Shown: positions 13,001-30,438 of the stretch, piece after piece
Layout: every line of letters starts with the position of its first letter
How positions within the stretch are numbered: position 1 is the stretch's first letter
Assembly: GCA_964358205.1 (NCBI GenBank)
Contig: CAYHNZ010000001.1
Span: 3,168-67,167, forward strand
Source of the DNA: an uncultured Candidatus Saccharibacteria bacterium
GTDB taxonomy: Bacteria > Patescibacteriota > UBA1384 > 2-12-FULL-50-11
Length of the DNA stretch: 64,000 nucleotides
Reading direction: 5' to 3'
The notes under the pieces: generated by a model
What the model was told of the DNA's origin: nothing
Databases searched by the model: none
What the model saw: the letters and a program-made list of their open reading frames with translations, nothing else
Translations under genes and position numbers: made by a program

Positions 13001-16000
13001 GGCGCGACAGTGTTGTTTCGTGGGACAAGTCTTGGCTCGACCCCGGCCGCCAACATCTCGACCTTAAAGTTTACAACGGCGCCGATCGTTGTCGGCGGCG
13101 GCGGCGGTACGGGTACCACCACCATCAGTATTATCAAAGGCGCGTATGGGGACAATTCCCTGACTGGAACAGGGACAGACATGGTGACCCATAACGTTGG
13201 GAACACCAACGGTTTGCGACTTCTGAACGGACCTGGGTTTTCCGGTGAGTATGCAGCGAACCTGGGTACCGCTAGTGCCAACGTGAAATTGACAGGGGAT
13301 ACGGCCGCCACGACGACCAATACCAATTCGATTGTTCTGAACGGTGGCGGCGTCACGAACGCCTCGGTGACGTTGCCGATCGCCGCCACCGCCTTAGCCG
13401 GAAACATTTTAATTGCGACCGCCCATAACATTGCCGGCGCGAATACGGTGCTTGGTATAACAACATTCGAACTCAATGTTTTAGCGAACGCGGCCTCAAC
13501 CGTTTCGGCCACCGTTGGTACGGCCACGACTGGGTCGCTTACCCTGAGCGGGAGCGGGAATGTGACCTTTAGCGCGGCGAATCCATATACCGGTACAACC
13601 TTTATTAATAATGCGACGTATACCTATGGCGTGGCTAACGCGATCAGTTCCGGTGCGGCAACGGTGATTGGCGGCACCTATAATCTTAACGGCAACTCCG
13701 ATACGATCGGCGCCCTGAACGCGACAGGTGGCACCATTGCCACCGGCGCGGGCACCTTAACGCTTGGCGGTACTGTCACTACCGTCGCCAACGCCAATGT
13801 AACCTCGATAATTACTGGGAACCTCGCGCTGGGGGCAAACCGAATCTTTAACGTTGGTGACGGCCTGGTCGATAACGACCTCGTTGTTTCGGCGACGGTC
13901 ACCGGCGCCTTTACCGTGACGAAAAGTACGGGCACTGGGGTCTTAGTATTATCGGCGACCGACAGTACCTATAGCGGTAGCACCACGATTAGCACCGGAA
14001 CGTTTCGGTTCGGCAGTGGGGGGAGTGGCGCTAACGGTCCGCTCGGGACGACGGCCGCGGCGACTATTATTTCTAGCGGTGCGTCTCTTGATCTGAATGG
14101 CTATTCGTTAGCGACTGCCGAAGGACTGACTATCAGCGGTACGGGTGTTGGGGCAAACGGGGCAATTATGAACACATCATCGGCCGCCGCAACTTACCAG
14201 GGTCTAATAATCCTCGGCGCGGCGGCAACGATTACGTCGAACTACGGCGATATTACCATTTCCAATACCGGCAGTATGACTGGTACCGGATTTGCGTTGA
14301 CCTTGCGCGGTGCCGGGAATGGTTCAATAGCCACTCAAGTCAATACTTCCACGGGTGGTTCAAGGGTTAAAAATGGCTTAGGCACCTGGACGGTTTCGGG
14401 CGATGGTGGCTACACCGGCGTAACGACAATTACTCTGGGCGTATTAAAACTGGGTGCGGCTGGTGGCGCGACTAATACGCCGCTCGGCACAACCGGTACC
14501 AATACGACGATTGCCAGCGGAGCGATGCTGGACTTAAATGGTTTTACTCTTGGTACGGCCGAGCCCTTATCGATACAAGGCACCGGTATCGCCAACGCCG
14601 GGGCGATTACAACCAGCTCGGGGATCGCGACGAGTTACTCGGGGGCAATTACGATTGCGACCGCTTCCCGTATAACGAACTATGGCAACGGGACATTCTC
14701 ACTCAGCGGTGCAATTGCAGGCGGTGCCGTGGCCTTAACGACCGTCAACGCGCCGGGAACAATTACCCAGACAAGCGCCAGCGTCTGGTCGGGTACGACA
14801 TCGTCTCTCACAAAAGAAGGCTGGGGGACGACGATTTTGGCGGGTCAAAACTCAATCACTGGCTCGATGACCGTCAGTTCCGGCACTCTCCAGCTCGGGG
14901 CAAACGGCGGCGCGGCGAATACTCCGACCGGGACTATTGCCGGAGGCGTGATTGTTTCGGCCGGTGCCGTGTTTGATTTGAGCACCTTCGTGTTGGGCGG
15001 CGCATCCACCTGGGAGCCACTAACCCTTAACGGTTCGGGCATCAAAAACGGCGGCGCCTTAATTAGTGCCGCCACCAGCGGTAATAACTTTGGCGTGGTG
15101 ACTTATGGATCGAGTGCCCGCGTCGTCAACAACGCTTCGGGGACGATTACCTTTGTCGGTGCGCCAACCGGAACCTTTAACTACGTTTTCGGCGGGACAG
15201 GTCCGATCACTATTACGGGTGTAATGCCGGCGGTGGCGATTACCATCACCAAATATGACTCTGGGATCCTGCTCTTAAATGGTGCACATCTCAGCACTGG
15301 ACTGATTCGTATTAACGGCGGGACGGTCAGATACGGCGTGGCCAATGCGATTCTGGTGAACGCCGTGACCATTGCCGGCGGGACGCTCGATATTAACGGT
15401 CAGACCGATGCCGTTGGTGCCATTATCCTGATGAGCGGCACGATTACCAACGGCGGCGCGGCCGCGACGCTAACTGGAACAGCCTATACGTTTTACGGGG
15501 GCGCCATTACCGCAGTGCTGGCCGGAACGGCAATCGCAATGGCGAAAAACACCGGCGCCACGCTGACGATCAACCAAGCTTTGACGAATACCGGTACCTT
15601 AACTATCAACGCCGGCACGGTCCAGTATTTGGCTAGCAACGTCGTGGCTAACACCGCCGCGGTCATCGTGGCTGGCGGCACGCTGGATATCGGCGCGCAA
15701 ACGGATACCGTGGCCGCCGTGACCCTGACCAGCGGAGCGATCACTGGCAGTACCGGAATTTTAACCGGCACTTCCTACGCCGTTGCCAGTGGCACGATCA
15801 GCGCGATTTTAGCCGGCGCGGTTACTCTGGCCAAAACCACGGCCGGTACGGTCACGCTCTCGGGTGTGAATACGTACTCGGGCGTTACGACGATCAGCGG
15901 TGGAGTCTTAAGTGTTGGCACTATTGGTAATGGTGGTGTGGCCGGGAACCTGGGAGCGGCGCCGGCCGCCGCATCCAATATTGTTTCCAATACCGGTACC

Positions 16001-19000
16001 GGGACATTGCAATATACCGGCACGACCTCGTCGACTGACCGCAGCATTACGACGACCGCGGCGATCACTTTAAATCTTGATATTACAAATCCTGCCGCAG
16101 CGCTAACCATTTCGGGGACGACGACTGTAACGACTGCGCCGTTCACGAAAGTTGGACCAGGGACACTGATCTTGTCGGGCACGAACGGTCATACGGGGCT
16201 AACCACGGTCCTGGCTGGGACGCTAAAAGAGGGCGTCGCCAGTGCACTCTCAACGGGAGCGTTAACTGTTACGAACGGGACATTCGATCTCAATAACTTC
16301 TCGGATAGTGTCGGGACAACCACTCTTACTAACGGTGGGCAGATGATCGATTCCGGCGGTACGACCGCGGTTTTGACTAGTACAGCAACTTACGCATTGC
16401 AAAGCGGTAAGATCAGCGCCCGACTGGGTAGCGCCGTTGCTGCCGGTATCTCTAAAACGACAACGGATCGGGTTATTCTTTCCGGCGACAATACGTTTAC
16501 CAGCACCTCTATAGCCTTGAGTGCCGGCGCCCTGAACCTTCAAAGCAACAACGCGCTCGGCGCTGCCGGTACGACCTTAACGACCACCATTACCTCGGGC
16601 GCGGCTCTGGAAACCCAAAATAATATTACGATTCCCAGCACCAAGCCAATTACGGCTAACTTGGGCGGCGTTAACAACAGTGGCGCAATTAGGAATATCG
16701 CCGATGCCAATACGATTCAAGCCAACATCGTGCTTGGTGTGACCAACACTCGGGTGAACTCGGACAGCGGCACCCTCACCTTCCCAACCGTCTCCGGTAA
16801 CACCAACAATTTAATTGTGGGCGGCGCCGGCAATACGACAGTTACCGGTATTATTAGCACTACATCTGGCACCTTAACCAAAGACGGTGCAGGCACATTG
16901 ACGCTTCAAGGCAATAACAGTTATACGGGTCTGACAACGATCAGCGCCGGTGTCGTGAATGTTCGGCATGCCGCAGGTCTTGGCACAATTGCGGCCGGTA
17001 CCTCCGTCGCCGCTGGCGCGGCCCTGCAAATACAAGGGATCGTCACCGTTGGCGCCGAAACGTTAACGCTCAATGGCACGGGCGTTGCCAGCGACGGAGC
17101 GTTAAGAAATATCACCAACAATAATACTTATCAGGGTAATATTACTCTCAATACTACCAGTTCGATTGGCTCCGATGCCAACACGCTCACTCTAAGCGGA
17201 ACAATAACTGGCGGTGCATCCATTGGCTTAACTAAAGTTGGTGCCGGCGAGGTGTCAGCTTCCAATACGGTCACGGTTGGTGGCGACCTAACGATTTCAG
17301 CGGGAACCTTAACTGCCTCCAGCAACACCATTACGGTTAGCGGTAACTGGTCTAATAGCGGCACATTTACGGCCGGCGCGAGTACGGTGGTATTAAATGG
17401 GGGCGCCACCCAGACTTTATCCGGAACCATGACCACCACCAGCGCATTTAACAACCTAACCGTGACTAACGCCTTCGGTACCAACGCCTCGGACTGCGAA
17501 CGAACCAGCTTTGTGGCCTCGATCGATTTCGATGCTGCGGCCACGGTGACAACAAACCTAGTCTTTACGACCGCCAGTACCAGGGTGGAATTCAACAGCG
17601 GGTCAACCTATGCTTTTACCAACATCAACTGGAACGGTCAGGCATCAGGTACGAAAATTTACTTCCGCAACTCGGACGCTTCCGGTACCTGGTTATTAAA
17701 AGTCACCGGCACCCAAACTGCGGTCTCGTTTATTAATGTCTCCCGCTCCGACGCATCGGTCGTCGGCGGTAACGCCATTGTCGCCAACGACGGCACCAAC
17801 ACCGATTGCACCAATAACACCAACTGGACATTCCCGAGTAGCAATACTGCCCCAAATGCGCCAACTAGCTTGGCCCAAAAGCGCACAACCGATGTGGCGC
17901 TCGCCACCGGTGATTGGACCAATGAAACATCCGTTAAGTTTACGGCAACCGCCAGCGACACCGATAATCCCGACACACTGAAGCTCTGTATTGAAGCAAT
18001 TGCGATTGCCAGCAATTTTACTAACACCGACACCGGCTGTGGAAGCTTAACCGCCTATAGCGGTACACCAATCACTGTTACCGTCACCTTGTCTGGCCTA
18101 GTTACCAGTACCGAGTACAAATGGCAGGCGAGAATCAAGGACACGGCTGATGCCGCTTCGGCCTGGAGCGATTACGCCGCCAATGGGTCTAGTCGCGATT
18201 TTGGTGTTGATACAACCGCTTGTACGACCGCCACCGTTTACGATGGCAGTTCCGCTGGTGTAGATGCCGACTTTAACGATAGCTCGCTAACGGCGCTATC
18301 AGGCAACTGGGATGCTTTTACTTGTACTGTTTCGGGTCTGCAGAAGTATGAGTACTCAATCGGCGTGACCGCCGGCGGTACGACAATCAAGGGCTGGACC
18401 GATAACTCGACGACAGCATCGGTCACCGCCGGTAGCTTGATTTTACACACTAATGAGCTCTATTTCATTAACATCCGAGCGACCGACAACGCCAGCAACG
18501 TTTCGTCAGTGGTGTCGTCTAATGGCCAACAGGTTTTACCGTCGTTAAGTTTTACTATGGGCAGTAACACGATTAGCTTTACTAATTTAAATAGCACCAA
18601 CAACCGACTCGACACTAAAACCGTTAGTCTAACCACCAGCACTAATGCTTTCGGCGGTTATATTATTCGCCAGTACGCCGGTGGCTTACTAACCGACGGT
18701 ACCAATACCATACCGATGTTCTCGGCTGGCTCGTACGCCGCACCAGCTTCGTGGGGGACAGGGTTTTGCTCGGGTACAACTTGTGGTTACGGCTATACAT
18801 CTAACGACACAACTATCCAAGGCAGCAACTTATTTAGTAGTGGCACGCTTTATGCCCCCTTTAGCCAAACTCCTTCTGGCGATATTGTGGCCGATCACAC
18901 CGCCGCCGTTGACGGTACGAGCGGTGCAGTTAGCAACGAGTCGTTCACTATTACCCATAAAGTCGCCGTAACCGCTCTACAAGCGGCCAAAACCTATCAA

Positions 19001-19036
19001 GCAACAGTCTACTTGATTGTCACTGGCACTTTTTAA
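7043..19036 (+). CDS. Giant (3,997 aa) cell-surface repeat protein: N-terminal TM/signal anchor, >30 autotransporter-associated beta-strand (PATR-like) repeats 'TxTGxTxVNxGTLxLG', C-terminal Ig/FN3-like region
   Basis: Single uninterrupted ORF; repeated units such as 'NTYTGLTTVNAGTLTYGV', 'NSYTGLTTISAGVVNV', 'NPYTGATTINTGTLTL' throughout. Confidence 0.85.
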   Translation: MAPQIQRARRRFDGVYQATRGKILCEYNLHPVRFFSVFFSVVVLLGVIAFFKPVSASIGLHLDQRELQNKYPNFWTLAEQKKISPSSDKYFIGDEPVVPSSSPVVLAVASDSTNIEVTADSAHEDIGQNPNQFTKSVSVEQVERGTKISQKETDGQAGLYRIKAQDRVTGAVTAEETIAWGVLAFNPDYSIYPTDTSATLAMAVLDDRGKMICDASLTIEITDPNGNKKILSTENELVLVNNACLIYGPTSEPDYIANYQTGTEGDYQVTIKARVGSGVRTLHDKFSVKDNQPFYLQRVGATRTFPNAEYVYKLNFQPKVDGQYQLTETVPAEFIISDTSAKITEVGDVKKLVWQVDAKAKADQTLMFGYKGPLKSPHLYTFGPAEVSYVADARSSSITQSQQSASRKLQAESWTEPRAWQIASDAPSTVNWDGSSSANWSDGANWSTNAIPQAGDNLVFPAGAANKSNSNDLGENMLFNSITFNDSGYTLAGNTIIVGQGLNGITDAVVSGGNTISLNLRVDVTRWLTVTNSGETLTISGTIAGVGGITKEGQGKLVLSGANTYGGVTKINGGDISARSNTALGTIATGTEVVGEAALELQGTIAIGREPLTLRGYGESSGGALKNVSDSNSFDGLITIAGIAEIQSDSGTLTLNGGVTGAAIPLVLDGAGNITFAKAPVANTSGLITKNGAGTLTYNFPNTYTGLTTVNAGTLTYGVDNAILSGGITVNGGTVDIATFSDMVGTVTLGTLAGGSGIITGSTGVLSSASYVVYVGTISAIIAGDGGTLAKSTPGTVTLTRPNLFSGATTVTVGTLKIQDSLALGVIDGITTVSAGATLQVDGTGLSIPEFITISGVGLLNQGVIWNSTGSNTVTGLVTMAAASTIKADVSTTITYATNGFTGAFGLTVNGDGDTTISGPIATTSGTLSKNGPGTLTLTAFNPYTGATTINTGTLTLNSNGAITMSASIAINSNGKLIADNSSVVTDRIGDAVAVSMNGGSWDFYGSSSTNTLATAGTLTMTGGKNAITVFAGTGGYTIMRFASFSRTAGARGLFRGASLGATPAANVATILFTTAPTLLGDDGVAGTSAVSIMQGVFGDNSTSGTGTDMVTYGRGNNNGLRLLNGAGFSNEYTTNFLTTNANIKISSATAAITSQINSLILDSGASITNPGSAQTITFMSGNILNLEASGSIAGANTTLAAGAVEFSISTPQSLTISSLITTTGGLTKGGTGTLTFSTAKTYTGLTSVNDGTLIYGINDAISSGAVTVNDATLDIATFTDTVGAVVVQGGTITGTSGVLTATSYDLRAATINAILAGSGTLTVVNTNERTDAVTTLSRDNTFTGSIALTSGVLKLGGAGGGSNTPLGTTAAGITMTSGAMLDLNGYTLVTSEAISATGTGIALQGAIINSSASTVTYNGVITQTAAARIGANYGKIIIGTGGITGTFNLTLGGFGDIDVTSAITISTGTITKDGFGIYTPSSASSTYTGLTTVSAGTLKLGVSGGATNTPLGTNAGGVTVTAGATLDMNGFSLATVADTLTINGTGSGTGDFAAGALVNSSGTGVTYVGAIVLGSATTVKSNSGTITLTTGGITGAFALTLGGTASSTISGVIATAAGTIIKIDTGTWTLSSVNTYTGAATIYQGTIKNGIAAAAGGGPLGTAAGATTIFSGGVLDMNGFSLSALAEGLTINGFGIESGGAMVNNSGSGVTYLGTRALGSDTRTTNSGAGLLTLSGIQSGAFESRYGGAGNITISVAIAATASSFWKDGAGTVILSAANGHTGVTTVAAGTLQYGILNTLAAGAVVVNGGTLNIVSFSDTVGAVTLVDGMISGTTGILTATGYTFESGTISGIIAGAVAVNKYTAGTVVISGVETISSTLTIHAGTIEISGSGSAVGVTAITINLGATLTLDNSTTAVASRLLDTIVLTMNGGNFNYKGNTASTAAETIGQLLFSSGHNTVTVTPGAGGSTTLTAATNPGINRTAGATVLFRGTSLGSTPAANISTLKFTTAPIVVGGGGGTGTTTISIIKGAYGDNSLTGTGTDMVTHNVGNTNGLRLLNGPGFSGEYAANLGTASANVKLTGDTAATTTNTNSIVLNGGGVTNASVTLPIAATALAGNILIATAHNIAGANTVLGITTFELNVLANAASTVSATVGTATTGSLTLSGSGNVTFSAANPYTGTTFINNATYTYGVANAISSGAATVIGGTYNLNGNSDTIGALNATGGTIATGAGTLTLGGTVTTVANANVTSIITGNLALGANRIFNVGDGLVDNDLVVSATVTGAFTVTKSTGTGVLVLSATDSTYSGSTTISTGTFRFGSGGSGANGPLGTTAAATIISSGASLDLNGYSLATAEGLTISGTGVGANGAIMNTSSAAATYQGLIILGAAATITSNYGDITISNTGSMTGTGFALTLRGAGNGSIATQVNTSTGGSRVKNGLGTWTVSGDGGYTGVTTITLGVLKLGAAGGATNTPLGTTGTNTTIASGAMLDLNGFTLGTAEPLSIQGTGIANAGAITTSSGIATSYSGAITIATASRITNYGNGTFSLSGAIAGGAVALTTVNAPGTITQTSASVWSGTTSSLTKEGWGTTILAGQNSITGSMTVSSGTLQLGANGGAANTPTGTIAGGVIVSAGAVFDLSTFVLGGASTWEPLTLNGSGIKNGGALISAATSGNNFGVVTYGSSARVVNNASGTITFVGAPTGTFNYVFGGTGPITITGVMPAVAITITKYDSGILLLNGAHLSTGLIRINGGTVRYGVANAILVNAVTIAGGTLDINGQTDAVGAIILMSGTITNGGAAATLTGTAYTFYGGAITAVLAGTAIAMAKNTGATLTINQALTNTGTLTINAGTVQYLASNVVANTAAVIVAGGTLDIGAQTDTVAAVTLTSGAITGSTGILTGTSYAVASGTISAILAGAVTLAKTTAGTVTLSGVNTYSGVTTISGGVLSVGTIGNGGVAGNLGAAPAAASNIVSNTGTGTLQYTGTTSSTDRSITTTAAITLNLDITNPAAALTISGTTTVTTAPFTKVGPGTLILSGTNGHTGLTTVLAGTLKEGVASALSTGALTVTNGTFDLNNFSDSVGTTTLTNGGQMIDSGGTTAVLTSTATYALQSGKISARLGSAVAAGISKTTTDRVILSGDNTFTSTSIALSAGALNLQSNNALGAAGTTLTTTITSGAALETQNNITIPSTKPITANLGGVNNSGAIRNIADANTIQANIVLGVTNTRVNSDSGTLTFPTVSGNTNNLIVGGAGNTTVTGIISTTSGTLTKDGAGTLTLQGNNSYTGLTTISAGVVNVRHAAGLGTIAAGTSVAAGAALQIQGIVTVGAETLTLNGTGVASDGALRNITNNNTYQGNITLNTTSSIGSDANTLTLSGTITGGASIGLTKVGAGEVSASNTVTVGGDLTISAGTLTASSNTITVSGNWSNSGTFTAGASTVVLNGGATQTLSGTMTTTSAFNNLTVTNAFGTNASDCERTSFVASIDFDAAATVTTNLVFTTASTRVEFNSGSTYAFTNINWNGQASGTKIYFRNSDASGTWLLKVTGTQTAVSFINVSRSDASVVGGNAIVANDGTNTDCTNNTNWTFPSSNTAPNAPTSLAQKRTTDVALATGDWTNETSVKFTATASDTDNPDTLKLCIEAIAIASNFTNTDTGCGSLTAYSGTPITVTVTLSGLVTSTEYKWQARIKDTADAASAWSDYAANGSSRDFGVDTTACTTATVYDGSSAGVDADFNDSSLTALSGNWDAFTCTVSGLQKYEYSIGVTAGGTTIKGWTDNSTTASVTAGSLILHTNELYFINIRATDNASNVSSVVSSNGQQVLPSLSFTMGSNTISFTNLNSTNNRLDTKTVSLTTSTNAFGGYIIRQYAGGLLTDGTNTIPMFSAGSYAAPASWGTGFCSGTTCGYGYTSNDTTIQGSNLFSSGTLYAPFSQTPSGDIVADHTAAVDGTSGAVSNESFTITHKVAVTALQAAKTYQATVYLIVTGTF

Positions 19037-19109
19037 TAACCAACGAAGCGACGCAAATCAACTCTAGCTTGACAGTTGCCAAAGAAAATAATTACAGTAA
19101 AGTTACAGC

Positions 19110-20207
19110 ATGAGGGGAACAACGCTGCGACGTTTCGGAATATATTTATCAATCACAGTTCTTTTAGTCGCCTTTAGCCCAATTCAGGATACGGCTTTGG
19201 CGGCGGCCATTAGTACTGCTTCCGACACAATGTCCACCATCAAGCAGAGCGTTAACGCTGACCACACCATTCAGTTCATCACTCCTACTGGTGTCGCGGC
19301 CGGCGAAACTATTACTTACGCCTTCCCAACCGGTTTTACCCTGCTGGCCGAAGCGGTTAATAACTTTGACTTTGCCGTCAGTGCCGCTGGCTCGTGTGCC
19401 AGCTTTACCGATAAAGCTCTGGCCCTAACCGCTTCTGGTGCAACCTGGGGGTTAGACGTCACCAGCCAAACCATCACCGTTACATCGGGAACAGATACCA
19501 TCGCTGCTGGTCGTTGCGTGCAGCTAGAAGCTGGCACAGTTGCCACCGACGGCACCACTGGTGCGGCTAACACCATTGTCAACCAGACGGCGGTCCAAAA
19601 TACCACCGACGCCAAAATAGTAATTGATGGTAGTATGGTCGATACCGGTACGATTGCCGTCGAAATTGTGACCGACAACACCTTGGCGGTCACTGCCACC
19701 GTTGACCCAAGCATTACTTGTGCCGTCGATGGTAACATCGCCCAATTTGGGACGTTTGTGACCAGCACGGTTGACACCGCCAGTCAAACGCCGATCTGGA
19801 CCATTAGCACTAACGCCAACACTGGCTACAACTTGTCGGTTAAATCGGCCGGCAATGCCACCAACGCTGGACTATATAGTTCCTCTGCCGCCTATGTAAT
19901 CAAGTCGGCTGACGGTTCTGAAAACTCAACGGCTGACTTAAGCGTGGCCGCGACGATCGGTTATGGTATGCAGGCAAGCAAAGCGAACGGCGACGCCGGC
20001 TCCGCCGCGTCCACTATTTCATCGCCTTACACGTCAACTAGCGATACGGTTGGTCGCTTACAGCTCACTGCGCAAACCGTCTCGTCAGCCGGTGGGCCAG
20101 TTTCCAACGCCACCGTTACCACGACACTTAAAGCCAAAGTCACTGGTTTAGTGCCACCCGGCGCCTACGTTGATACCCTTACTTACGTTTGCAGCGGAAT
20201 CTATTAA
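19110..20207 (+). CDS. Secreted Thr/Ala/Ser-rich beta-rich protein of unknown function (signal peptide)
   Basis: N-terminal signal 'LSITVLLVAFSPIQDTALAAA'; composition typical of surface beta-sandwich proteins. Confidence 0.5.
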   Translation: MRGTTLRRFGIYLSITVLLVAFSPIQDTALAAAISTASDTMSTIKQSVNADHTIQFITPTGVAAGETITYAFPTGFTLLAEAVNNFDFAVSAAGSCASFTDKALALTASGATWGLDVTSQTITVTSGTDTIAAGRCVQLEAGTVATDGTTGAANTIVNQTAVQNTTDAKIVIDGSMVDTGTIAVEIVTDNTLAVTATVDPSITCAVDGNIAQFGTFVTSTVDTASQTPIWTISTNANTGYNLSVKSAGNATNAGLYSSSAAYVIKSADGSENSTADLSVAATIGYGMQASKANGDAGSAASTISSPYTSTSDTVGRLQLTAQTVSSAGGPVSNATVTTTLKAKVTGLVPPGAYVDTLTYVCSGIY

Positions 20208-20211
20208 TCTG

Positions 20212-21222
20212 ATGAGGCAGCGTCTCCACCTGCTTACCAAACTCTTTTTGGCTCTTTTGGTGGGTGGCGTTATTTTTATTTCGGCTACTCGGGCACAAAC
20301 TGACACCGGCATTACTTTCGGTATAACGATTGCGCCAGTTATAGACGAATTTAGCTCTGAATCGGGAACAACAACGTCGCGAACAATCAAGATTACTAAT
20401 CCCATTCAGGAGGTGGTCACCCTTTATCCACAAGCGCTTAATATTTACTCCGATAACGACAAGGGTCAGCCAAAATTTTACAGCCTGAACGAACGTAACT
20501 CGCGCTACTCTGTTTCCGACTGGATTACATTCTCCAAGCCGTTAATAAGGATTGCGCCAGGTGAAGTTGAAGAATTTGCCTACAAGCTAACCGTCCCCAA
20601 GGATGCCGAGCCCGGTGGCCATTACGGTGCGGTGCTGTTTTCAACCAAACCGCCAGTTGTCCAAACACCAGACCCTAAAAATAGTCAAGTCAGCGTGGTT
20701 GGTCTAATCGGCACGCTCGTACTGCACACGGTTCCTGGAGCGGTCGTTCAGAAAGCAACTCTAACTAATTACTCTGCGCCAACAATTTTAATCCGGGCAC
20801 CAGCCAATTTTTCACTAACTTTCCAGAACACCGGTAATGTTCATATTAAACCAGTTGGCGAGATAAAGGTTCGCAATCTTTTTGGGGAAGTAACGACCAG
20901 CCTGAAGGTCAACGACGGCGGCGGTAGCGTTCTGCCGGAAAGCACTCGAAAATATGAAACCAGCTGGAAATTTAACTGGCAGCAGATCGGTAAATTTACC
21001 GCCTCTGCCGTCGTTACTTTTGGTACACCCGAGCAGCAAATAATCTCTGTTAGAACCTTTTACATCATTCCAGTTTGGTCGCTAGTGTTATCTGGCCTGA
21101 TTATATTAATAATTATTTGGTTGATTTTCCGGCGCCAACGCCGAGCGAAAACTATGCCACCGCCACCAACCTCACCACCGTCACCACCGGAACCAAAACG
21201 ACCAGGATTTGCGATGCGCTAA
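20212..21222 (+). CDS. Cell-surface protein with signal peptide, C-terminal TM anchor followed by RRQRR and Pro-rich tail; architecture resembles DUF916/DUF3324-type surface proteins
   Basis: 'LFLALLVGGVIFISATRAQT' signal; C-terminal 'IIPVWSLVLSGLIILIIIWLIFRRQRRAKTMPPPPTSPPSPPEP'; start set at internal ATG 20212. Confidence 0.45.
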   Translation: MRQRLHLLTKLFLALLVGGVIFISATRAQTDTGITFGITIAPVIDEFSSESGTTTSRTIKITNPIQEVVTLYPQALNIYSDNDKGQPKFYSLNERNSRYSVSDWITFSKPLIRIAPGEVEEFAYKLTVPKDAEPGGHYGAVLFSTKPPVVQTPDPKNSQVSVVGLIGTLVLHTVPGAVVQKATLTNYSAPTILIRAPANFSLTFQNTGNVHIKPVGEIKVRNLFGEVTTSLKVNDGGGSVLPESTRKYETSWKFNWQQIGKFTASAVVTFGTPEQQIISVRTFYIIPVWSLVLSGLIILIIIWLIFRRQRRAKTMPPPPTSPPSPPEPKRPGFAMR

Positions 21223-23245: not shown

Positions 23246-23453
23246 TCCCGAGTCGTCTACTACGAACTGACACTTTCTGTTCCGGGATCGTCTAGCGGTA
23301 GGACTGCAGATTCTGGATCTGCCAACCTTGGTTCGAATCCAAGTCCCGGAACAAAGTGTGTCAGTGAGAAGCGAGTCCGCCAACAAGCGGACGACAATGG
23401 TAGGACGCTAGGTTCTGGTCCTAGTAACCGGGGTTCGAATCCCTGCTCGGGAA
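23246..23453 (+). other. Interrupted 'outer' tRNA-Gln(CUG)-like gene: 5' piece 23246-23259 (acceptor + D-stem + first D-loop nt) and 3' piece 23397-23453 (rest of D loop to acceptor), separated by a 137-nt insert that contains the complete tRNA-Gln
   Basis: TCCCGAG...CTCGGGA acceptor pairing; 3' piece has anticodon stem CTAGG/CCTAG, loop TTCTGGT (CUG), T arm CGGGG-TTCGAAT-CCCTG. Confidence 0.5.
23281..23351 (+). tRNA. tRNA-Gln (anticodon CUG), complete cloverleaf, no encoded CCA; flanked by 12-13-bp inverted repeats (CTGACACTTTCTG / CAAAGTGTGTCAG)
   Basis: TCCGGGA-TC-GTCT-AGCGGTA-GGAC-T-GCAGA-TTCTGGA-TCTGC-CAAC-CTTGG-TTCGAAT-CCAAG-TCCCGGA-A; close to E. coli tRNA-Gln. Confidence 0.85.
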
Positions 23454-23711: not shown

Positions 23712-24188
23712 CTACGATGAAGGAATGTCGCCCTTCCAACTCCACAATAGCTCATAACCCTTGAGATAATTCTCGTCTCGTACCCGAAGGCAAGTGACAA
23801 CGTAATTCATTTCTTCAATTACACCGTCCTCAAGGTCGGTCATTTTTGTTTCAATCGAGCAAAGGTACATAAATTTCCCAATCATTTTGAAGAAGCAAAG
23901 GCTGCCTCGCTTGCTGGTTTTATTAAGATAAACTCGATCAGGGAAACGCACAATTTTAGCCATATTTTTCAAAACTACATCAAACTCCTCGGCAGGCTTT
24001 CGGTCGTATAGGTGTTTGATAACTCTGGTTGTAATGTGCACTTTAGCGATAGTTAAATTGCAGCCTTGCCTGGTAGCGAGGGTCAAATTAGTAAGATAAA
24101 GAGTCAAATCGACAACAATGGCCTCTGGGTCTGTTCCTTCAATACGTTCCGAGAAGGCTTTATCGAGACTGCTTTCCATCTCGTCCAT
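23712..24188 (-). CDS. Hypothetical protein (158 aa)
   Basis: ORF only. Confidence 0.3.
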   Translation of the reverse strand: MDEMESSLDKAFSERIEGTDPEAIVVDLTLYLTNLTLATRQGCNLTIAKVHITTRVIKHLYDRKPAEEFDVVLKNMAKIVRFPDRVYLNKTSKRGSLCFFKMIGKFMYLCSIETKMTDLEDGVIEEMNYVVTCLRVRDENYLKGYELLWSWKGDIPSS

Positions 24189-24329: not shown

Positions 24330-27300
24330 ATGATGGGTGGGAGGGGTTTTATAGGAGGGCGATTAATCCATTCCGGTCAAAAGTTTTGGCGAAGATTGTC
24401 GAGCCGACGGCGGGTAAATATTTTAATCGTAGTTGGAGTTTTAACACTGATTGTCGGTGGCTTACTTCGTAATGATTTTACGGCTCAAGAGATTGGCTCG
24501 AACGAAGCCCATAACGGTTTACCGCAACTACCGGCCGAACAAGGTGGACCGGTTATCTATCGCCCGAGCGAGAGCGTTTTGCCAGGCGAAACCCTTAACC
24601 TGACTGGCGGTAACTTTAGTGCCCAAGCGACGGCCGTGATCCAGTTGATCAACAACAACGGCACACGCGCCGCTAGCCGCGCCTTGACCCTCGAGAATCA
24701 GAGCGCTTTCTTAATTCAAGCCACCGTTCCTGCCGATTTGACACCCGGCCTCTGGTCGGTTTGGGTCGAACAAATTGTCGACAAGACATTGGTGGCCAGT
24801 AACGAAGTTTATATTAACGCCCCCGATGTGAGCCACTACCCAACTCCCGACGTTGCTCCGGGCGAGAGCCTTGCTATTTACGGTCGGAACCTCACAAAAG
24901 ATAAAAACGACGCTAACGGTTACCGGCAAAGTGCGGTGGTTTTCAAACATAATGGAACAAGCCTGACGGCATCGGTAACGGGTGGCGATTGGTTCCATTT
25001 GGTTGTCAAAGCCCCAGCGGGATTGCAACCGGGTACCGACTACGATGTCTATGTCTCGAATGGTTTGGGTGGTGAGCTAGGCTTGATTAAAGCCCAAAGC
25101 GATAAGCCGCTCAAAGTGGTGGCCGCCGGGACAGCCGATACCTTGGGACTTGGCGTCAACTGGGCTCGCAAACTGGATTTCGTCAACGATGCATCCCGAA
25201 CCTACAACGTTAAAACCGACCCGCGCCTTGCTCGTAAAGCCGTTGGTGACGGAGTAACCAACGATCGGCAAGCGATTCAAGAAGCCATTGACGCGGCCGC
25301 CGCTGGAGGTGGTGGAGTAGTCTACCTGCCGCAAAGTACCTACTACGTTAGTATTGGCACAAACGACACTATTGTTCTTCGTAGCAAGGTGGTTCTCAAG
25401 GGTGAAGGTACCGACAAGACGACGATTAAATACGGCGTGCGGGATGTGAAGGACTTAAGCTATTTCTTGCGTTTTCAGGATATCGATAATGGTGCTGGTG
25501 GTTTAGCCGGTATTACAAGTTTGACAATTACCAATATTAATCACGACAATAGTGATCCAAACTTAGATTTTGTCGGTGGCTCGGCTGGTATTAGTTTTGG
25601 TAACGCCGGTCAGACATTTATGACCAAAGTCAAATACGATATGGGCCCGCATGATTTCGTCGGAAGCGAGTACTCAAGCCAGCTACTAATTAGTGACTCG
25701 GAGATGACCAGCCTCTACAGCTGGATCGGCCCAGCTTTTCGTTTTTCTGGGAAAAAGCCAAATGCCGAGATGTCGGCCGAGCGGAGTGCAAACTCCGGTT
25801 ATTACAACCGATACAGCGGCAATACATTTACATACCTTAACGGCCGATTTTCTTTGTTTGAACAACAAGACTCGACTTTTGAAAATAATCAAGTCATTAG
25901 CGATGTCCGGGCCCAGCCGAACCTCCAAACCCATAACACATGTTGTAGCGGAGGCGTCACCTTTAATTTTAGTAACTTCACCGCCCTGATCGGCAATACC
26001 GTCAAGACCGTCAACGGTATCAATCGGTTCGGTGTAAACGACAGAGAAGCCTTTGTGACCGAGAACCCCCTCGAAGGCTTGTGGCATATGGGTAGCGTCA
26101 CCGACAGTACCGAAACCACCCTGACGGACAATACCCAACAGTGGGAAGATGTCATCAACGGTCGTTGGCCAACCTATAATAACGGCCTTAGTTTCGGCCA
26201 GCCGCATAAACGTGGTGACGCTGCATACAATGCTAGTACCAACACCAACGGTGACGACTGGGACGGTGATGTCCCGCTTAAGCCGGGTAGCCGGCTTCAG
26301 CCGTGGGACCCGATCAGCATTCAGCGTTTGGTGGTGGCGATTACCGATGGAACTGGGCAGGGACAGTGGCGTTACATTACGGCCAACACCCCCACCACCC
26401 TTACTATTGACCGACCCTGGGACTTAAAGCCAGACAGCACTAGCCAGTATAAAATTACCGTCCCGGTGACGATAGACGTGGTCATTGCCAAAAACACGAT
26501 TGAGAACGCTAACGCCGGAATTATCCTTTATGATGGGGGTATTCGAAACCTCATCGCTGACAACCGTGTCATTAATGCCGGCGAAGTGAGTATCTACGCT
26601 AAAGATATTCACAGCGGCTACAATCAACCCTCGTGCGATTTTATGGGGCGGATTATTGGCGATGACCCCTACTCGCCAACACGCGAATCTTTTCCTCGGG
26701 TGGAAAGCAATAACGTGCCGGCCGCTTTCCACGACTGTTATCGCCTCGGCTTAGCCTGGGATAACGAGATAGTCGACAACACCAACGAGAATACCAACGG
26801 CAATTACCCGGCCCAGTTCTACGTCATAAATAATAACTTTATTAACGGTAGCGACCATGACGAGCAGGATTATCTTACGGATGATTGCAACGGTGACGGT
26901 AAAGTTGATAGTGCTGACGCGGCTTGCAATAATGATTACCGCAAAAATCTTCGGGCACCTTTCCATAACAATTCCATGTTTAATACGGTCTTGCGAGACA
27001 ACAAAATCGTTGCCGGAGACAGATTGATGGACGGTAATTACTTATCTAAATTGCCAAATCGTTTTAATTATTTTAGTTTCGACTTCAGTTCCAAGGAACG
27101 TTACTACGTGTTGGCTGGTGGATCAGCTCAAGGACTACTCCAGGAGACTGATGCCGCCAACAAGGCCGTCATCGGGACGATCTTAGACAATAATACCATC
27201 AGTAATATGGGTAACGGTTCAGATGATCAACCTTATATTTTCTCGTTGGGTACGAGCCAAACTACGCTCAAAAGTCTCGGTCAACCTTCGACCGCCTGCT

Positions 27301-27896
27301 ACCGGATCAATCTCACCAAACCCCGTGGCGATCAATCGGCTGGAGGCCTAAATCTACTTTTCTTGGACGCGAATCGTCAAACCACAAACTACAAAACAAA
27401 CCAACAGTATGTAGCTAGTCTGGGTAGCGAGCAAACCGATGCCATCGGTCGAGCAACAATTAACGATGCCGCTGCCAATTTCCTTTTGCGCTATCGTTAC
27501 ACAATTACCCAACGAGCTGATAACGGGGTAATCTGGCAGCAACATCACTGGGTACCAATTGACGCCAACCAGAAGTACACCACTTGGTATAAAGTGCCTG
27601 GCTATCTAGGCAAGAGAACCAACGGGGTATTGGCGAGCGCTCTTTTTGACCCGACTAAATGCGGCACAACCGGCGTTCTCGATTTGACTAAAGCAATTTT
27701 GGGAGACTTCAATAATGATAATCAAATCACCGAGGCCGACATCACGGTCGCCATCCAAGCCTACAACGGCACGACGGATAGCGCCGCTGCAAAAACAGCC
27801 CTCGGTGCCTACAACGACCTTTTGACAATTAAGGATTTGGCGGCGCTTATCAAAACCTTCAACACCTCCTCTAAAGGCGATCCTAACTCGCCGTAA
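24330..27896 (+). CDS. Large secreted right-handed parallel beta-helix (pectate-lyase-fold) protein with Ca-binding DxDxDG-like loops and C-terminal dockerin-like module
   Basis: N-terminal TM/signal; beta-helix-style repeats; 'DDCNGDGKVDSADAA'; C-terminal 'LGDFNNDNQITEADITVAIQAY...AYNDLLTIKDLAALIK' dockerin-like duplicated segment. Confidence 0.6.
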   Translation: MMGGRGFIGGRLIHSGQKFWRRLSSRRRVNILIVVGVLTLIVGGLLRNDFTAQEIGSNEAHNGLPQLPAEQGGPVIYRPSESVLPGETLNLTGGNFSAQATAVIQLINNNGTRAASRALTLENQSAFLIQATVPADLTPGLWSVWVEQIVDKTLVASNEVYINAPDVSHYPTPDVAPGESLAIYGRNLTKDKNDANGYRQSAVVFKHNGTSLTASVTGGDWFHLVVKAPAGLQPGTDYDVYVSNGLGGELGLIKAQSDKPLKVVAAGTADTLGLGVNWARKLDFVNDASRTYNVKTDPRLARKAVGDGVTNDRQAIQEAIDAAAAGGGGVVYLPQSTYYVSIGTNDTIVLRSKVVLKGEGTDKTTIKYGVRDVKDLSYFLRFQDIDNGAGGLAGITSLTITNINHDNSDPNLDFVGGSAGISFGNAGQTFMTKVKYDMGPHDFVGSEYSSQLLISDSEMTSLYSWIGPAFRFSGKKPNAEMSAERSANSGYYNRYSGNTFTYLNGRFSLFEQQDSTFENNQVISDVRAQPNLQTHNTCCSGGVTFNFSNFTALIGNTVKTVNGINRFGVNDREAFVTENPLEGLWHMGSVTDSTETTLTDNTQQWEDVINGRWPTYNNGLSFGQPHKRGDAAYNASTNTNGDDWDGDVPLKPGSRLQPWDPISIQRLVVAITDGTGQGQWRYITANTPTTLTIDRPWDLKPDSTSQYKITVPVTIDVVIAKNTIENANAGIILYDGGIRNLIADNRVINAGEVSIYAKDIHSGYNQPSCDFMGRIIGDDPYSPTRESFPRVESNNVPAAFHDCYRLGLAWDNEIVDNTNENTNGNYPAQFYVINNNFINGSDHDEQDYLTDDCNGDGKVDSADAACNNDYRKNLRAPFHNNSMFNTVLRDNKIVAGDRLMDGNYLSKLPNRFNYFSFDFSSKERYYVLAGGSAQGLLQETDAANKAVIGTILDNNTISNMGNGSDDQPYIFSLGTSQTTLKSLGQPSTACYRINLTKPRGDQSAGGLNLLFLDANRQTTNYKTNQQYVASLGSEQTDAIGRATINDAAANFLLRYRYTITQRADNGVIWQQHHWVPIDANQKYTTWYKVPGYLGKRTNGVLASALFDPTKCGTTGVLDLTKAILGDFNNDNQITEADITVAIQAYNGTTDSAAAKTALGAYNDLLTIKDLAALIKTFNTSSKGDPNSP

Positions 27897-27898
27897 TA

Positions 27899-29113
27899 AT
27901 GCTACTCGGCGGAAAACGGCTAATTACATTGGGCTGTCTGCTAATTTTGGCGGTAGCTTACTCCGGCGACAGACTCTTAGCCAAAGATCTTCCCGGAGCG
28001 GGCGGCAATCAACAAGCCACCGTTAACGCTATTCTCGGTTTTAGCCAGGCCAGCTATACTGGCGCCGTTGGAACAAACACCTCAATCGATCTGGTTGTCA
28101 ACAGCGGCAGTAACGGCTTGAGTATTGTCTCCGTCGCTATTAGCTATCCGGCCAACCTGCTCCGATTTATCGGTGCGGACTATGGAGGTTCCGCTTTTCC
28201 GACTACTGTTAGGGAGGCCGAAGACACCGCTGGAACGATCACTCTTTCCCGAGCCAATTTGAATAACGGAGGGTTTAGTGGTAGTCAGGGTTTGATAGCC
28301 CATCTTAACTTTACCCTCATTGCCCAAGGCTCGACCTTAATCCAAATAAATCAAAATGCCTCCGATGTTCGCGACTATATCTTTGCCGAGAACGTTTTGG
28401 CCAGCGTCACTAGCGCCGCGGTAACTGTTACCCAGGCTGGCGGCGGTACGAGTAAAGGTCCGGGTGGCGGCACCGGCGGTGGAGGAGGGGGTGGTGGTAA
28501 TGGTGGCGGAGGAAGTGGATCTGGTGGCAGTGGTGGAACCGGCAGTGGTAACACCGGTGGGAGTAGCGGTAGTACCACCACCGAAGAAGGCTCGTCAATA
28601 TCAACGGACGGAAGTCAGTCAAACCCAGGCAACCAGAGCAATCAAACCCAGAGCAATAAGAGAGCGACCAAGCCGGTCGTTACCACCTATCCCGACACCG
28701 ATAACTTCCGCAATTTAGTAGTGAAGGCTCTGACCAACCAGGCCATTATTAGCTGGGAAAGTCCGACTGCTTACACTTACGAGCTGAAGTATCAGCTAAC
28801 GAACGGTCAAGCGATTGACGCCCAAACAATTCGCTCCGACCAACCCAACACTCTTTTCCAGGCGGTCATCTCCAATCTAGAAAGCTGTCGAAATTATGGT
28901 TTTACCATCACTCTTTTTGAGGAAAAAAAGACCGTCGAAATGCGCAACGACAGCTTCACCACCCTTGGTTGTAAATTTCTACTACCCGTCGATCCCGTGA
29001 CTGGTCGACTGTCCTCTGTCACCAGCCTACTGATTGCCATCGGTATAACGGCTCTAATAGGTCTAATCAGCTTTTTTACCATCTGGGCTGTCAAAATCTT
29101 TCACGGTCGATAA
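27899..29113 (+). CDS. Membrane-anchored scaffold-like protein: signal peptide, cohesin-like domain, Gly-rich linker, FN3-like domain, C-terminal TM anchor
   Basis: Cohesin-like ~150 aa ('TSIDLVVNSGSNGLSIVSVAISYPANLLRFIGADYG...'); GGT-repeat linker; C-terminal 'LLIAIGITALIGLISFFTIWAV'. Confidence 0.5.
   Translation: MLLGGKRLITLGCLLILAVAYSGDRLLAKDLPGAGGNQQATVNAILGFSQASYTGAVGTNTSIDLVVNSGSNGLSIVSVAISYPANLLRFIGADYGGSAFPTTVREAEDTAGTITLSRANLNNGGFSGSQGLIAHLNFTLIAQGSTLIQINQNASDVRDYIFAENVLASVTSAAVTVTQAGGGTSKGPGGGTGGGGGGGGNGGGGSGSGGSGGTGSGNTGGSSGSTTTEEGSSISTDGSQSNPGNQSNQTQSNKRATKPVVTTYPDTDNFRNLVVKALTNQAIISWESPTAYTYELKYQLTNGQAIDAQTIRSDQPNTLFQAVISNLESCRNYGFTITLFEEKKTVEMRNDSFTTLGCKFLLPVDPVTGRLSSVTSLLIAIGITALIGLISFFTIWAVKIFHGR
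28441..28600. repeat. GGT/GGC-rich low-complexity DNA encoding poly-Gly/Ser linker
   Basis: 'GGCGGCGGTACGAGTAAAGGTCCGGGTGGCGGCACCGGCGGTGGAGGAGGGGGTGGTGGTAATGGTGGC...'. Confidence 0.8.
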
Positions 29114-29612
29114 GATGTACAAAGTATTTTATGGCTTGGCAGTTTTGGTGGCGTTGGCGCTGATAATTATCGGCGTCGTGGCTAGTCGCAAAAACGATAG
29201 CCCAACCAACGGCGACTCCTTTAACACCGACCAACTCCAAGACGCTGAACAGAAAACCCCTTAGAGCCTGACAATAATCTAACCGCAACATCCAAACTAA
29301 TAACAATACTACTTGCCGGTTAAAACAGCCCCATTTCGTCTGCAAACCACTCATCCTTCCTCACCGTATCTCAATATGGTTCGTCGGTCTTCGTGGTTTT
29401 CGCTTGAAATGGGACAGTTTTTCCTCGGCATTAGATTTTGTCAGGCTCTTAAGGGCAAGGCTAAAGTTATAAGGCTAAAGTCTGAAGTAAGTGACAACTT
29501 TCAAGTATTAAGTAATTAGAACTTATTACCTATTACTTACTTTGAACGGACCGCCATCCGCCAGCGGCGGTGAAAAGCGAGGGATAGCGACAAATAACTA
29601 ATTGATCAGGTA

Positions 29613-30023
29613 TCAGGCGATTTGCTCAATATGTAGAGCGTGAGCTTGTTTTAGCAATTTCTTGTCATAGCTGAATAATTTAGAAATACCTGCGTCCAAC
29701 ATTAGCTGTAGTATCAATGCATCATTCACGCCGGTGTTTAATTTTTGGCCCAGGTCAGCATAGCGTAAAGCGAAATCAATACTCGGTGAAGGCTCAACTA
29801 GGATTAGGCCTGGTAGTTTAGCGATTCTTTCCACGGCCCTAACGATATCAGCATCGGGAGAGAGCTTTGATAAGACAAATAATACTTCCTCGATAATATG
29901 GTGCGAGGTTACAAGTTGCTCGTCATCATCTACCAGTTTTTGAAGGAGTCCAATGGTTTGGGAATGGTTATCAGATGTTTCATCTAAGTAATAGACCAGC
30001 ACATTAGCGTCTAGCAAAACCAT
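29613..30023 (-). CDS. vapC: PIN-domain ribonuclease toxin (VapC-like)
   Basis: 'MVLLDANVLVYYLDE...' with conserved acidic residues of PIN fold; 136 aa. Confidence 0.7.
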   Translation of the reverse strand: MVLLDANVLVYYLDETSDNHSQTIGLLQKLVDDDEQLVTSHHIIEEVLFVLSKLSPDADIVRAVERIAKLPGLILVEPSPSIDFALRYADLGQKLNTGVNDALILQLMLDAGISKLFSYDKKLLKQAHALHIEQIA

Positions 30024-30198
30024 TGGACTTCTTTCATAACCCCTATTTGACAGCTTAACTGGGAGCGATTTTGAGCGAAAGGCACGATCTTGTGAGAAGG
30101 CATAGACACATCTACGCTGACGAGCAAATCGTGACTTGTAGCCAAAGTCGCCAGTTGAGTTTGATCAATGGGGTTATGAAAGAAGTCCATTATTTGAG

Positions 30199-30438
30199 CT
30201 ACTCGTATTTACTCTCGGCAAGCTCGTTGAGATATTCCGGGGTTAATGGCCGACCGGCTTTTTCCTGCAGACGAAAGCCTCCGCCAATAACCTTGCGACT
30301 TTTAGCTGTAATAGAAAGCGGTTCAAGACGAGCAATGGGTCTGCCCGCCTTGCCAATGACAATCCGCTCTCCATTAGCCGCCCTCTCAAGTAGCTTGGAA
30401 AAGTTTGTTTTCGCTTCGTGTACATTGATTACATTCAT
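30199..30438 (-). CDS. Phd/YefM-family type II antitoxin
   Basis: 'MNVINVHEAKTNFSKLLERAANGERIVIGKAGRPIARLEPL' canonical Phd/YefM N-terminus; 79 aa. Confidence 0.75.
   Translation of the reverse strand: MNVINVHEAKTNFSKLLERAANGERIVIGKAGRPIARLEPLSITAKSRKVIGGGFRLQEKAGRPLTPEYLNELAESKYE

Follow-up and report, generated by a model that had tools for sequence, protein, structure and literature searches.

The 64,000-nucleotide stretch of contig CAYHNZ010000001.1 analysed here (hereafter the window) carries two adjacent genes that encode a membrane-anchored cohesin and a large beta-helix protein ending in an X-module-dockerin (XDoc) dyad. We think it probable (roughly 0.7) that the two form a dedicated anchoring pair, in which the cohesin would display the beta-helix protein on the cell surface. 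Together they constitute a two-gene, possibly three-gene, operon of an ultra-small Patescibacteria (Candidate Phyla Radiation, CPR) bacterium from groundwater. Its open reading frames (ORFs) lie on the + strand at 24330-27896 (1,188 amino acids, aa), 27899-29113 (404 aa) and 29115-29264 (49 aa), as the earlier note on this DNA had placed them. Two nucleotides (nt) separate the stop codon of the 1,188-aa gene from the ATG of the 404-aa gene, and a single base lies between the latter's stop codon and the start (ATG) of the 49-codon ORF.

The 1,188-aa surface protein is composed of an N-terminal hydrophobic helix, two IPT/TIG-like immunoglobulin (Ig) domains, a right-handed beta-helix, an X module and a dockerin. 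Its 404-aa neighbour is a type I membrane protein consisting of a signal peptide, a cohesin, a linker rich in Gly, Ser and Thr, an FN3-like domain and a transmembrane (TM) anchor. Public records hold only PF12708 for the former and nothing for the latter.

A divergent cohesin and a single-loop X-module-dockerin dyad

The earlier note had named a cohesin-like beta domain and a dockerin-like tail and had suggested Pfam searches for both (PF00963 and PF00404); neither domain passed a Pfam threshold directly, but both were recovered by family profiles. Direct Pfam, NCBIfam and PDB sequence searches with the cohesin region gave no match, and a word-index homologue search with the domain found nothing. 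Searched exhaustively with phmmer (cutoff E <= 1e-3), 1.84 billion representative proteins yielded 187 relatives, many of them carrying two to four tandem copies of a ~136-residue cohesin domain. Among the best 91 of these 187 relatives, PF00963 was present in 44 (best E 4.6e-36) and Dockerin_1 in nine. A profile made from an alignment of 35 domain sequences matched PDB cohesins (5nrm, 6kgc, 5m2o, 2vn5, 1g1k and 2xdh) at E values from 2e-6 to 1e-2, so that homology to cohesins is established both through intermediates and by profile.

The same alignment was used to model the domain with AlphaFold2. The model is all-beta (mean pLDDT 95.2) and has the nine-stranded beta-sandwich, or jelly-roll, of ~140 residues that defines a cohesin; no other fold was predicted. 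In a Foldseek search of the PDB, ranks 1-44 were all cohesins (E down to 2.6e-10, TM-scores 0.75-0.81). The closest matches are type I cohesins (6kgc, 2vn5, 1g1k and 5nrm), with type II cohesins at ranks 26-34; the model is without the helix between strands 6 and 7 that, together with beta-flaps, marks the type II kind. The 404-aa protein thus has a genuine cohesin at residues ~42-180 (28022-28438; E 1e-42 with a family hidden Markov model, HMM), too divergent for Pfam.

The remainder of the 404-aa protein bears out most of what had been described from the letters alone. A hydropathy scan located a signal-like helix at residues 1-27 and a C-terminal TM anchor at residues ~373-398 (29015-29092; Kyte-Doolittle 2.55), the latter followed by the basic tail KIFHGR. 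Between the cohesin and the anchor lies a flexible low-complexity linker rich in Gly, Ser, Thr and Asn (residues 181-262; 28439-28684), the poly-Gly linker of the earlier note; over residues 181-265 it has 32 Gly (38% of 85 residues), 15 Ser and 12 Thr. Whole-protein PDB searches matched engineered Gly-Ser linkers (of single-chain variable fragments, scFv) only, because of this segment alone, and these matches were discarded as linker artefacts. The FN3-like domain (residues ~265-358; 28691-28972), which includes a conserved Cys pair, fared less clearly: it scored 20.9 bits against the Pfam fn3 cutoff of 25, a match that is weak but recurs in the orthologue described below.

The C-terminus of the 1,188-aa protein is a type II-like XDoc dyad with a single intact Ca loop. 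The X module (residues ~990-1123; 27297-27698) is a beta-sandwich with the motif Y-x-V-x-x-K-V-P-G-Y-L, and the dockerin (residues 1124-1181; 27699-27872; Pfam Dockerin_1 21.7 bits as an isolated tail) comprises an intact first Ca loop (D1126-D1137) with its helix, a linker helix, and a degenerate second repeat with its helix. A profile of the X module plus dockerin (A5) matched type II XDoc chains in the PDB (2b59_B, 4u3s_B, 3kcp_A, 4wi0_B and 5g5d_B; E 2.8e-7 to 1e-5), which are the type II dyads of Clostridium (Acetivibrio) thermocellum and A. cellulolyticus scaffoldins, and the alignments begin in the X module and reach into the first dockerin repeat. In a word-index homologue search, the XDoc profile recovered nothing beyond a sequence that was itself part of the query.

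An AlphaFold2 model of residues 985-1188 (mean pLDDT 77) consists of a beta-sandwich and then three helices. Within the dockerin part (model residues 141-200) pLDDT is about 90 or above, and the helices at 151-161, 168-176 and 183-195 form the compact three-helix fold of dockerins. The top 10 Foldseek matches in the PDB were XDoc dyads without exception, the best of them dockerin-containing XDoc chains, and the Ig-like X module stands directly N-terminal to the dockerin and packs against it, as in such dyads.

The tail had been read as a duplicated Ca-binding dockerin-like segment. Its assignment as a dockerin stands (A5 profile E 2.8e-7 to type II XDoc), whereas the duplication of Ca sites does not, only the first loop being intact. 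The first repeat (DFNNDNQITEAD; loop GDFNNDNQITEAD) has the canonical pattern of Ca ligands, D1126-F-N-N-D-N-Q-I-T-E-A-D1137, and is followed by a helix. In the second, L-G-A-Y-N-D-L-L-T-I-K-D (LGAYNDLLTIKD), the helix is kept and the ligands at loop positions 1 and 3 are lost. A dockerin with two Ca loops, that is, two ~22-residue repeats each made of D-x-N/D-x-D-x-x-hydrophobic-x-x-x-D and a helix, is found neither here nor anywhere in the subfamily.

Conservation of the gene pair and its wider family

By custom HMMs, the 64-kb window holds a single cohesin and a single XDoc, as does a 21-kb syntenic locus (L090) on contig JALHMV010000002.1 of the metagenome-assembled genome (MAG) GCA_022843855.1. 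In the latter, the gene for a 360-aa protein (P0013) lies 6 nt downstream of the gene for a 1,153-aa protein (L090:6533-9994). Over its full length the 1,153-aa protein shares 45% identity with the 1,188-aa protein of the window, and both contain the N-terminal helix, Ig domains, beta-helix, an internal Cys-flanked Ca loop, X module and single-loop dockerin. P0013 is 26% identical to the 404-aa protein and has the same architecture: signal peptide, cohesin, Gly/Ser linker, FN3-like domain with the same Cys pair, and TM anchor. Its FN3-like domain scores 21.1 bits with Pfam fn3 and aligns with that of the window, Cys residues included. The genes flanking the pair differ between the two loci; in L090 the cassette is bracketed by two BNR/Sortilin-Vps10-type beta-propeller proteins (L090:3118-4437 and L090:11624-12955), which are absent from the window. 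That the pair has been kept as neighbours in a second, divergent genome supports a functional pair. The surface-tethering interpretation suggested earlier is supported, with the refinements given here. No further syntenic loci were found in GTDB genomes (scanned with the 404-aa protein) or in Joint Genome Institute (JGI) metagenomes (scanned with beta-helix alignments).

Beyond this pair, 145 relatives have a good cohesin domain: 45 of these end in a TM helix, 12 carry a two-loop dockerin and six the single-loop XDoc. The window cohesin lies closest to single cohesins with a TM anchor and to proteins with the single-loop XDoc, and none of the 25 nearest domains belongs to a two-loop-dockerin protein. 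The six cohesin-bearing relatives that end in the single-loop dockerin (P0018, P0024, P0077, P0081, P0120 and P0150; ~330-390 aa) combine an N-terminal hydrophobic helix, one cohesin, an X module and the dockerin on one chain, and in all six the dockerin follows a beta-sandwich with the motif Y-x-V-x-x-x-V-P-G-Y-L. Such one-chain proteins could, in principle, polymerise head-to-tail or act as adaptors. One gene of this kind (L089:4985-6007) has GH130 and GT4 genes as neighbours.

Proposed surface display, its alternatives and its precedents

We propose that the 1,188-aa protein would be exported via Sec, and that its Ca-loaded dockerin, stabilised by the X module, would plug into the membrane-anchored cohesin. 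In the 404-aa protein the FN3-like domain would hold the cohesin off the membrane, while the flexible Gly/Ser/Thr-rich linker, ~80 residues long, would extend its reach. The outcome would be a beta-helix protein shown non-covalently on the surface of a cell without an outer membrane. We infer that the cohesin and the XDoc bind one another physically and that they do so in a Ca-dependent manner. Neither the 1,188-aa nor the 404-aa protein yielded a surface-layer homology (SLH) or sortase-type wall-anchoring domain.

Several points weigh against a dedicated anchoring pair. The 404-aa protein has no PF00963 match even at E <= 10, and Dockerin_1 (PF00404) falls below its Pfam cutoff of 22.9 bits both in the whole 1,188-aa protein (19.4) and in the isolated tail (21.7; E 2.3e-4). 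The second Ca loop is degenerate, so that neither affinity nor binding mode can be carried over from canonical dockerins, and since the cohesin is type I-like and the dyad type II-like, the pairing is without an exact structural precedent. Only one independent syntenic example is known. The 1,188-aa protein may also keep its N-terminal membrane helix as an anchor, which would make a second tether less obviously needed. Lastly, an enzymatic nature of the beta-helix is a prediction; its superfamily also holds pure adhesins such as PfbA.

Both modules might be genuine and yet have other partners, with the anchored cohesin taking another dockerin protein and the XDoc another cohesin, in a larger, multi-component surface assembly. 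The XDoc's cohesin could, for example, be on an adaptor-type protein with a cohesin, X module and single-loop dockerin. Networks do exist in the family, where many relatives have two to four cohesins and at least 18 proteins carry a cohesin and a dockerin on one chain, and our coverage of this genome amounts to 64 kb. We nevertheless regard such an arrangement as unlikely: the genes are adjacent, translationally coupled and kept as a pair in a second genome with other flanks, and the ratio of cohesin to XDoc is 1:1 at both loci. We judge it somewhat less likely still that the beta-helix protein is held by its own N-terminal helix, the cohesin-XDoc contact serving to pin its C-terminus in cis (to orient or rigidify it) or to bridge cells of the same species in trans. 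The helix (residues 27-50; 24408-24479) is strongly hydrophobic (Kyte-Doolittle 2.29 over 19 residues), follows the poly-Arg stretch RRLSSRRR and lacks an obvious Ala-x-Ala cleavage motif, in the window protein and in the L090 orthologue alike; judged by these features it may be either a signal peptide or an uncleaved signal anchor. An Arg-rich n-region with a hydrophobic core is, however, also typical of cleaved Sec signals, and the data do not separate cis from trans.

That the tail is vestigial, or a structural Ca-binding or glycan-binding element that binds no cohesin, with gene adjacency unrelated to binding, seems to us very improbable. Its second Ca loop has been lost and its Pfam score is sub-threshold, and a role as adhesins has been suggested for the non-cellulosomal dockerins of other ultra-small bacteria (PMC10066038). 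Against this, the single-loop form is a conserved subfamily in which both helices are kept (DLxxAIRAYN and NLVxLIxxYN), it always stands behind the same X module, and it recurs specifically with cohesins of this clade and in the syntenic pair. A cellulosome was also considered and rejected: within the window there are one cohesin and one dockerin protein, no carbohydrate-binding module (CBM) and no cellulase, in keeping with the earlier note, which had set the pair outside a classical cellulosome context.

One of the closest known counterparts of dedicated anchoring is the type II system of the C. thermocellum cellulosome (CipA XDoc with SdbA, OlpB or ScaC; 2B59, 3KCP and 5G5D), in which the partner cohesin is likewise cell-bound and serves anchoring rather than enzyme integration. 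The two differ in that the dockerin here has one intact Ca loop, the cohesin is more type I-like (its model being without a helix between strands 6 and 7), and the anchor is a single TM helix instead of SLH repeats. Moreover, the cargo here is one beta-helix protein and not a multi-cohesin scaffoldin, no CBM or cellulases accompany it, and the host is a CPR bacterium of oligotrophic groundwater. The type III system of Ruminococcus flavefaciens (CttA or ScaB XDoc with the cell-wall-anchored ScaE cohesin) similarly places an XDoc-bearing non-scaffoldin on a surface cohesin, and naturally truncated or atypical dockerins are among those described for that system in PMC12270676. ScaE, however, is sortase-anchored and the X modules differ; type III cohesins were weaker structural matches (ranks 28-43), and no sequence-level match to this system was found.

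It is well known that cohesin and dockerin modules also occur outside cellulosomes (Peer et al. 2009, as cited in PMC10066038, ref. 42). Those of Archaeoglobus fulgidus (2XDH) and Clostridium perfringens (GH33, 2VO8; NagJ, 2OZN) resemble the modules described here in being single-copy and carried by non-cellulolytic proteins. The cohesins 2XDH and 2VO8 are among the Foldseek matches of the window cohesin, and NagJ chains 2jh2, 2o4e, 2ozn and 2w1n gave weak matches only (E 0.07-0.35) in the cohesin profile search. What sets the present modules apart is that their partners are adjacent, co-conserved genes, that the XDoc has one Ca loop, and that both modules are sub-threshold and publicly unannotated. 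Within the Patescibacteria, SEML1_0315, a dockerin-domain cell-envelope protein of the cultivated Southlakia epibionticum, has been reported as essential and speculated to target host glycans (PMC10633639). It is, by description only, likewise a dockerin-bearing envelope protein of a CPR epibiont; no cohesin partner is described there, and our searches of the literature turned up no account of a cohesin-dockerin pair from CPR bacteria. From these known systems the locus differs in its XDoc subfamily with one Ca loop, in the pairing of that XDoc with a type I-like cohesin anchored by a TM helix, in the conserved two-gene cassette and in the escape of both modules from Pfam thresholds.

Cargo, genomic setting and implications

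The core of the cargo (residues ~296-985; 25215-27284) is a right-handed beta-helix of the pectate-lyase-3 superfamily with lineage-specific insertions, scoring 41 bits with PF12708 against a Pfam cutoff of 27. Its homologues P0002-P0004 carry PF13229 (Beta_helix). It is preceded by two tandem IPT/TIG-like Ig domains (residues ~73-265; 24546-25124), identified by a family profile match to the IPT/TIG chain 8co1_Q2 (E 3.9e-5) and a weak MG2 match; these are also conserved in Bacteroidota-type homologues. The core is 28-30% identical to proteins without an XDoc that are encoded in polysaccharide-utilisation-type loci, where the neighbours include a hybrid two-component sensor, a SusC-like transporter, a GH31 and a fucosidase, and acidic residues (for example D525 and E573) are conserved between these homologues and the 1,188-aa protein. 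One of the homologues, P0004 (L007:2946-6398), has a ~400-residue C-terminal extension in which SGNH/GDSL-esterase-like motifs were recognised by eye, without confirmation by Pfam.

The beta-helix also contains a Cys-flanked EF-hand-like loop, DDCNGDGKVDSADAAC (residues 851-866; 26880-26927; regular-expression match), which is conserved as DCNSDGRVDWADVPC in the L090 orthologue, absent from Bacteroidota-type homologues and probably a disulfide-stapled Ca site. Matches of the core in the PDB (5lw3, 2pyg, 3zpp and 4mr0) cover its N-terminal cap only and comprise AlgE4/AlgE6 epimerases, the PfbA adhesin, the Sf6 tailspike and a beta-1,3-glucanase; the cap motif is one that epimerases, rhamnogalacturonases and tailspikes have in common. 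The cargo is most likely an enzyme that degrades glycans or an adhesin that binds them, and its targets would be a host cell's envelope or polymers of the environment. The location of its homologues in polysaccharide-utilisation-type loci favours a glycan-active enzyme; since only the cap region aligns to solved structures, an adhesin may still be accommodated.

Contigs identical to the window come from Hainich groundwater well H43, some of them from the 0.1 um filter fraction, and the best matches of its DnaE among GTDB species are Patescibacteria MAGs at 46-58% identity. GC content is 0.50 in the cassette and 0.50 in the window, and on the basis of this equality we rejected the idea that the cassette is a recently transferred island, although a tRNA-Gln gene and a toxin-antitoxin pair do flank it. 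The 49-codon ORF that follows the cohesin gene encodes one strong TM segment (Kyte-Doolittle 2.94 in the hydropathy scan), as had been noted earlier, and is possibly a third member of the operon, although its membership is uncertain. Gene calls on public contigs favour an antisense 87-aa ORF (29091-29354, -) over it, no homologues were found for either ORF, and the syntenic locus L090 has no counterpart of the 49-codon ORF.

Directly upstream of the cassette lie a gene for tRNA-Gln(CTG) at 23281-23352 and a 158-aa ORF (23712-24188, -) with a sub-threshold PBECR3 nuclease-like match; directly downstream is a PIN-domain toxin and PhdYeFM antitoxin pair (29613-30438, -). Farther upstream, a region at 7043-21222 (+) contains a 3,997-aa ORF with 12 PATR repeats and then two smaller ORFs. 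The first of these (365 aa) reaches 24.3 bits with the C-terminal domain model of the CPR Pam pilin in NCBIfam, a weak match given the cutoff of 55, and the second (350 aa) combines a WxL-interacting/fn3_5-like domain with a hydrophobic, TM-like stretch towards the C-terminus. This region may be a surface-appendage locus resembling that of the Pam pilus (compare preprint 10.64898/2026.03.03.709456).

The single-Ca-loop XDoc is a natural minimal variant. It could help to show to what extent binding requires the dockerin duplication, and protein engineers could use it as an orthogonal tag of compact size. For the organisms themselves, the finding bears on a large share of bacterial diversity: CPR bacteria live mostly attached to other cells, and little is known of the ways in which they expose enzymes and adhesins on their surface. 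What the locus offers is concrete: in two divergent genomes, neighbouring genes encode a pair made up of a cohesin anchored in the membrane and a large beta-helix protein with an X-dockerin tail. More tentatively, and with doubt in our own minds, the pair might represent a widespread, modular Patescibacteria surface-display system that goes undetected by standard annotation. Often TM-anchored, sub-threshold cohesins and dockerins with an X module and a single Ca loop would then mount glycan-attacking or adhesive beta-helix proteins on ultra-small epibionts, and proteins with both a cohesin and an XDoc would form head-to-tail surface chains for host attachment and feeding. Pfam thresholds miss both modules in this lineage, so the number of cohesin-dockerin systems in CPR genomes is probably underestimated.

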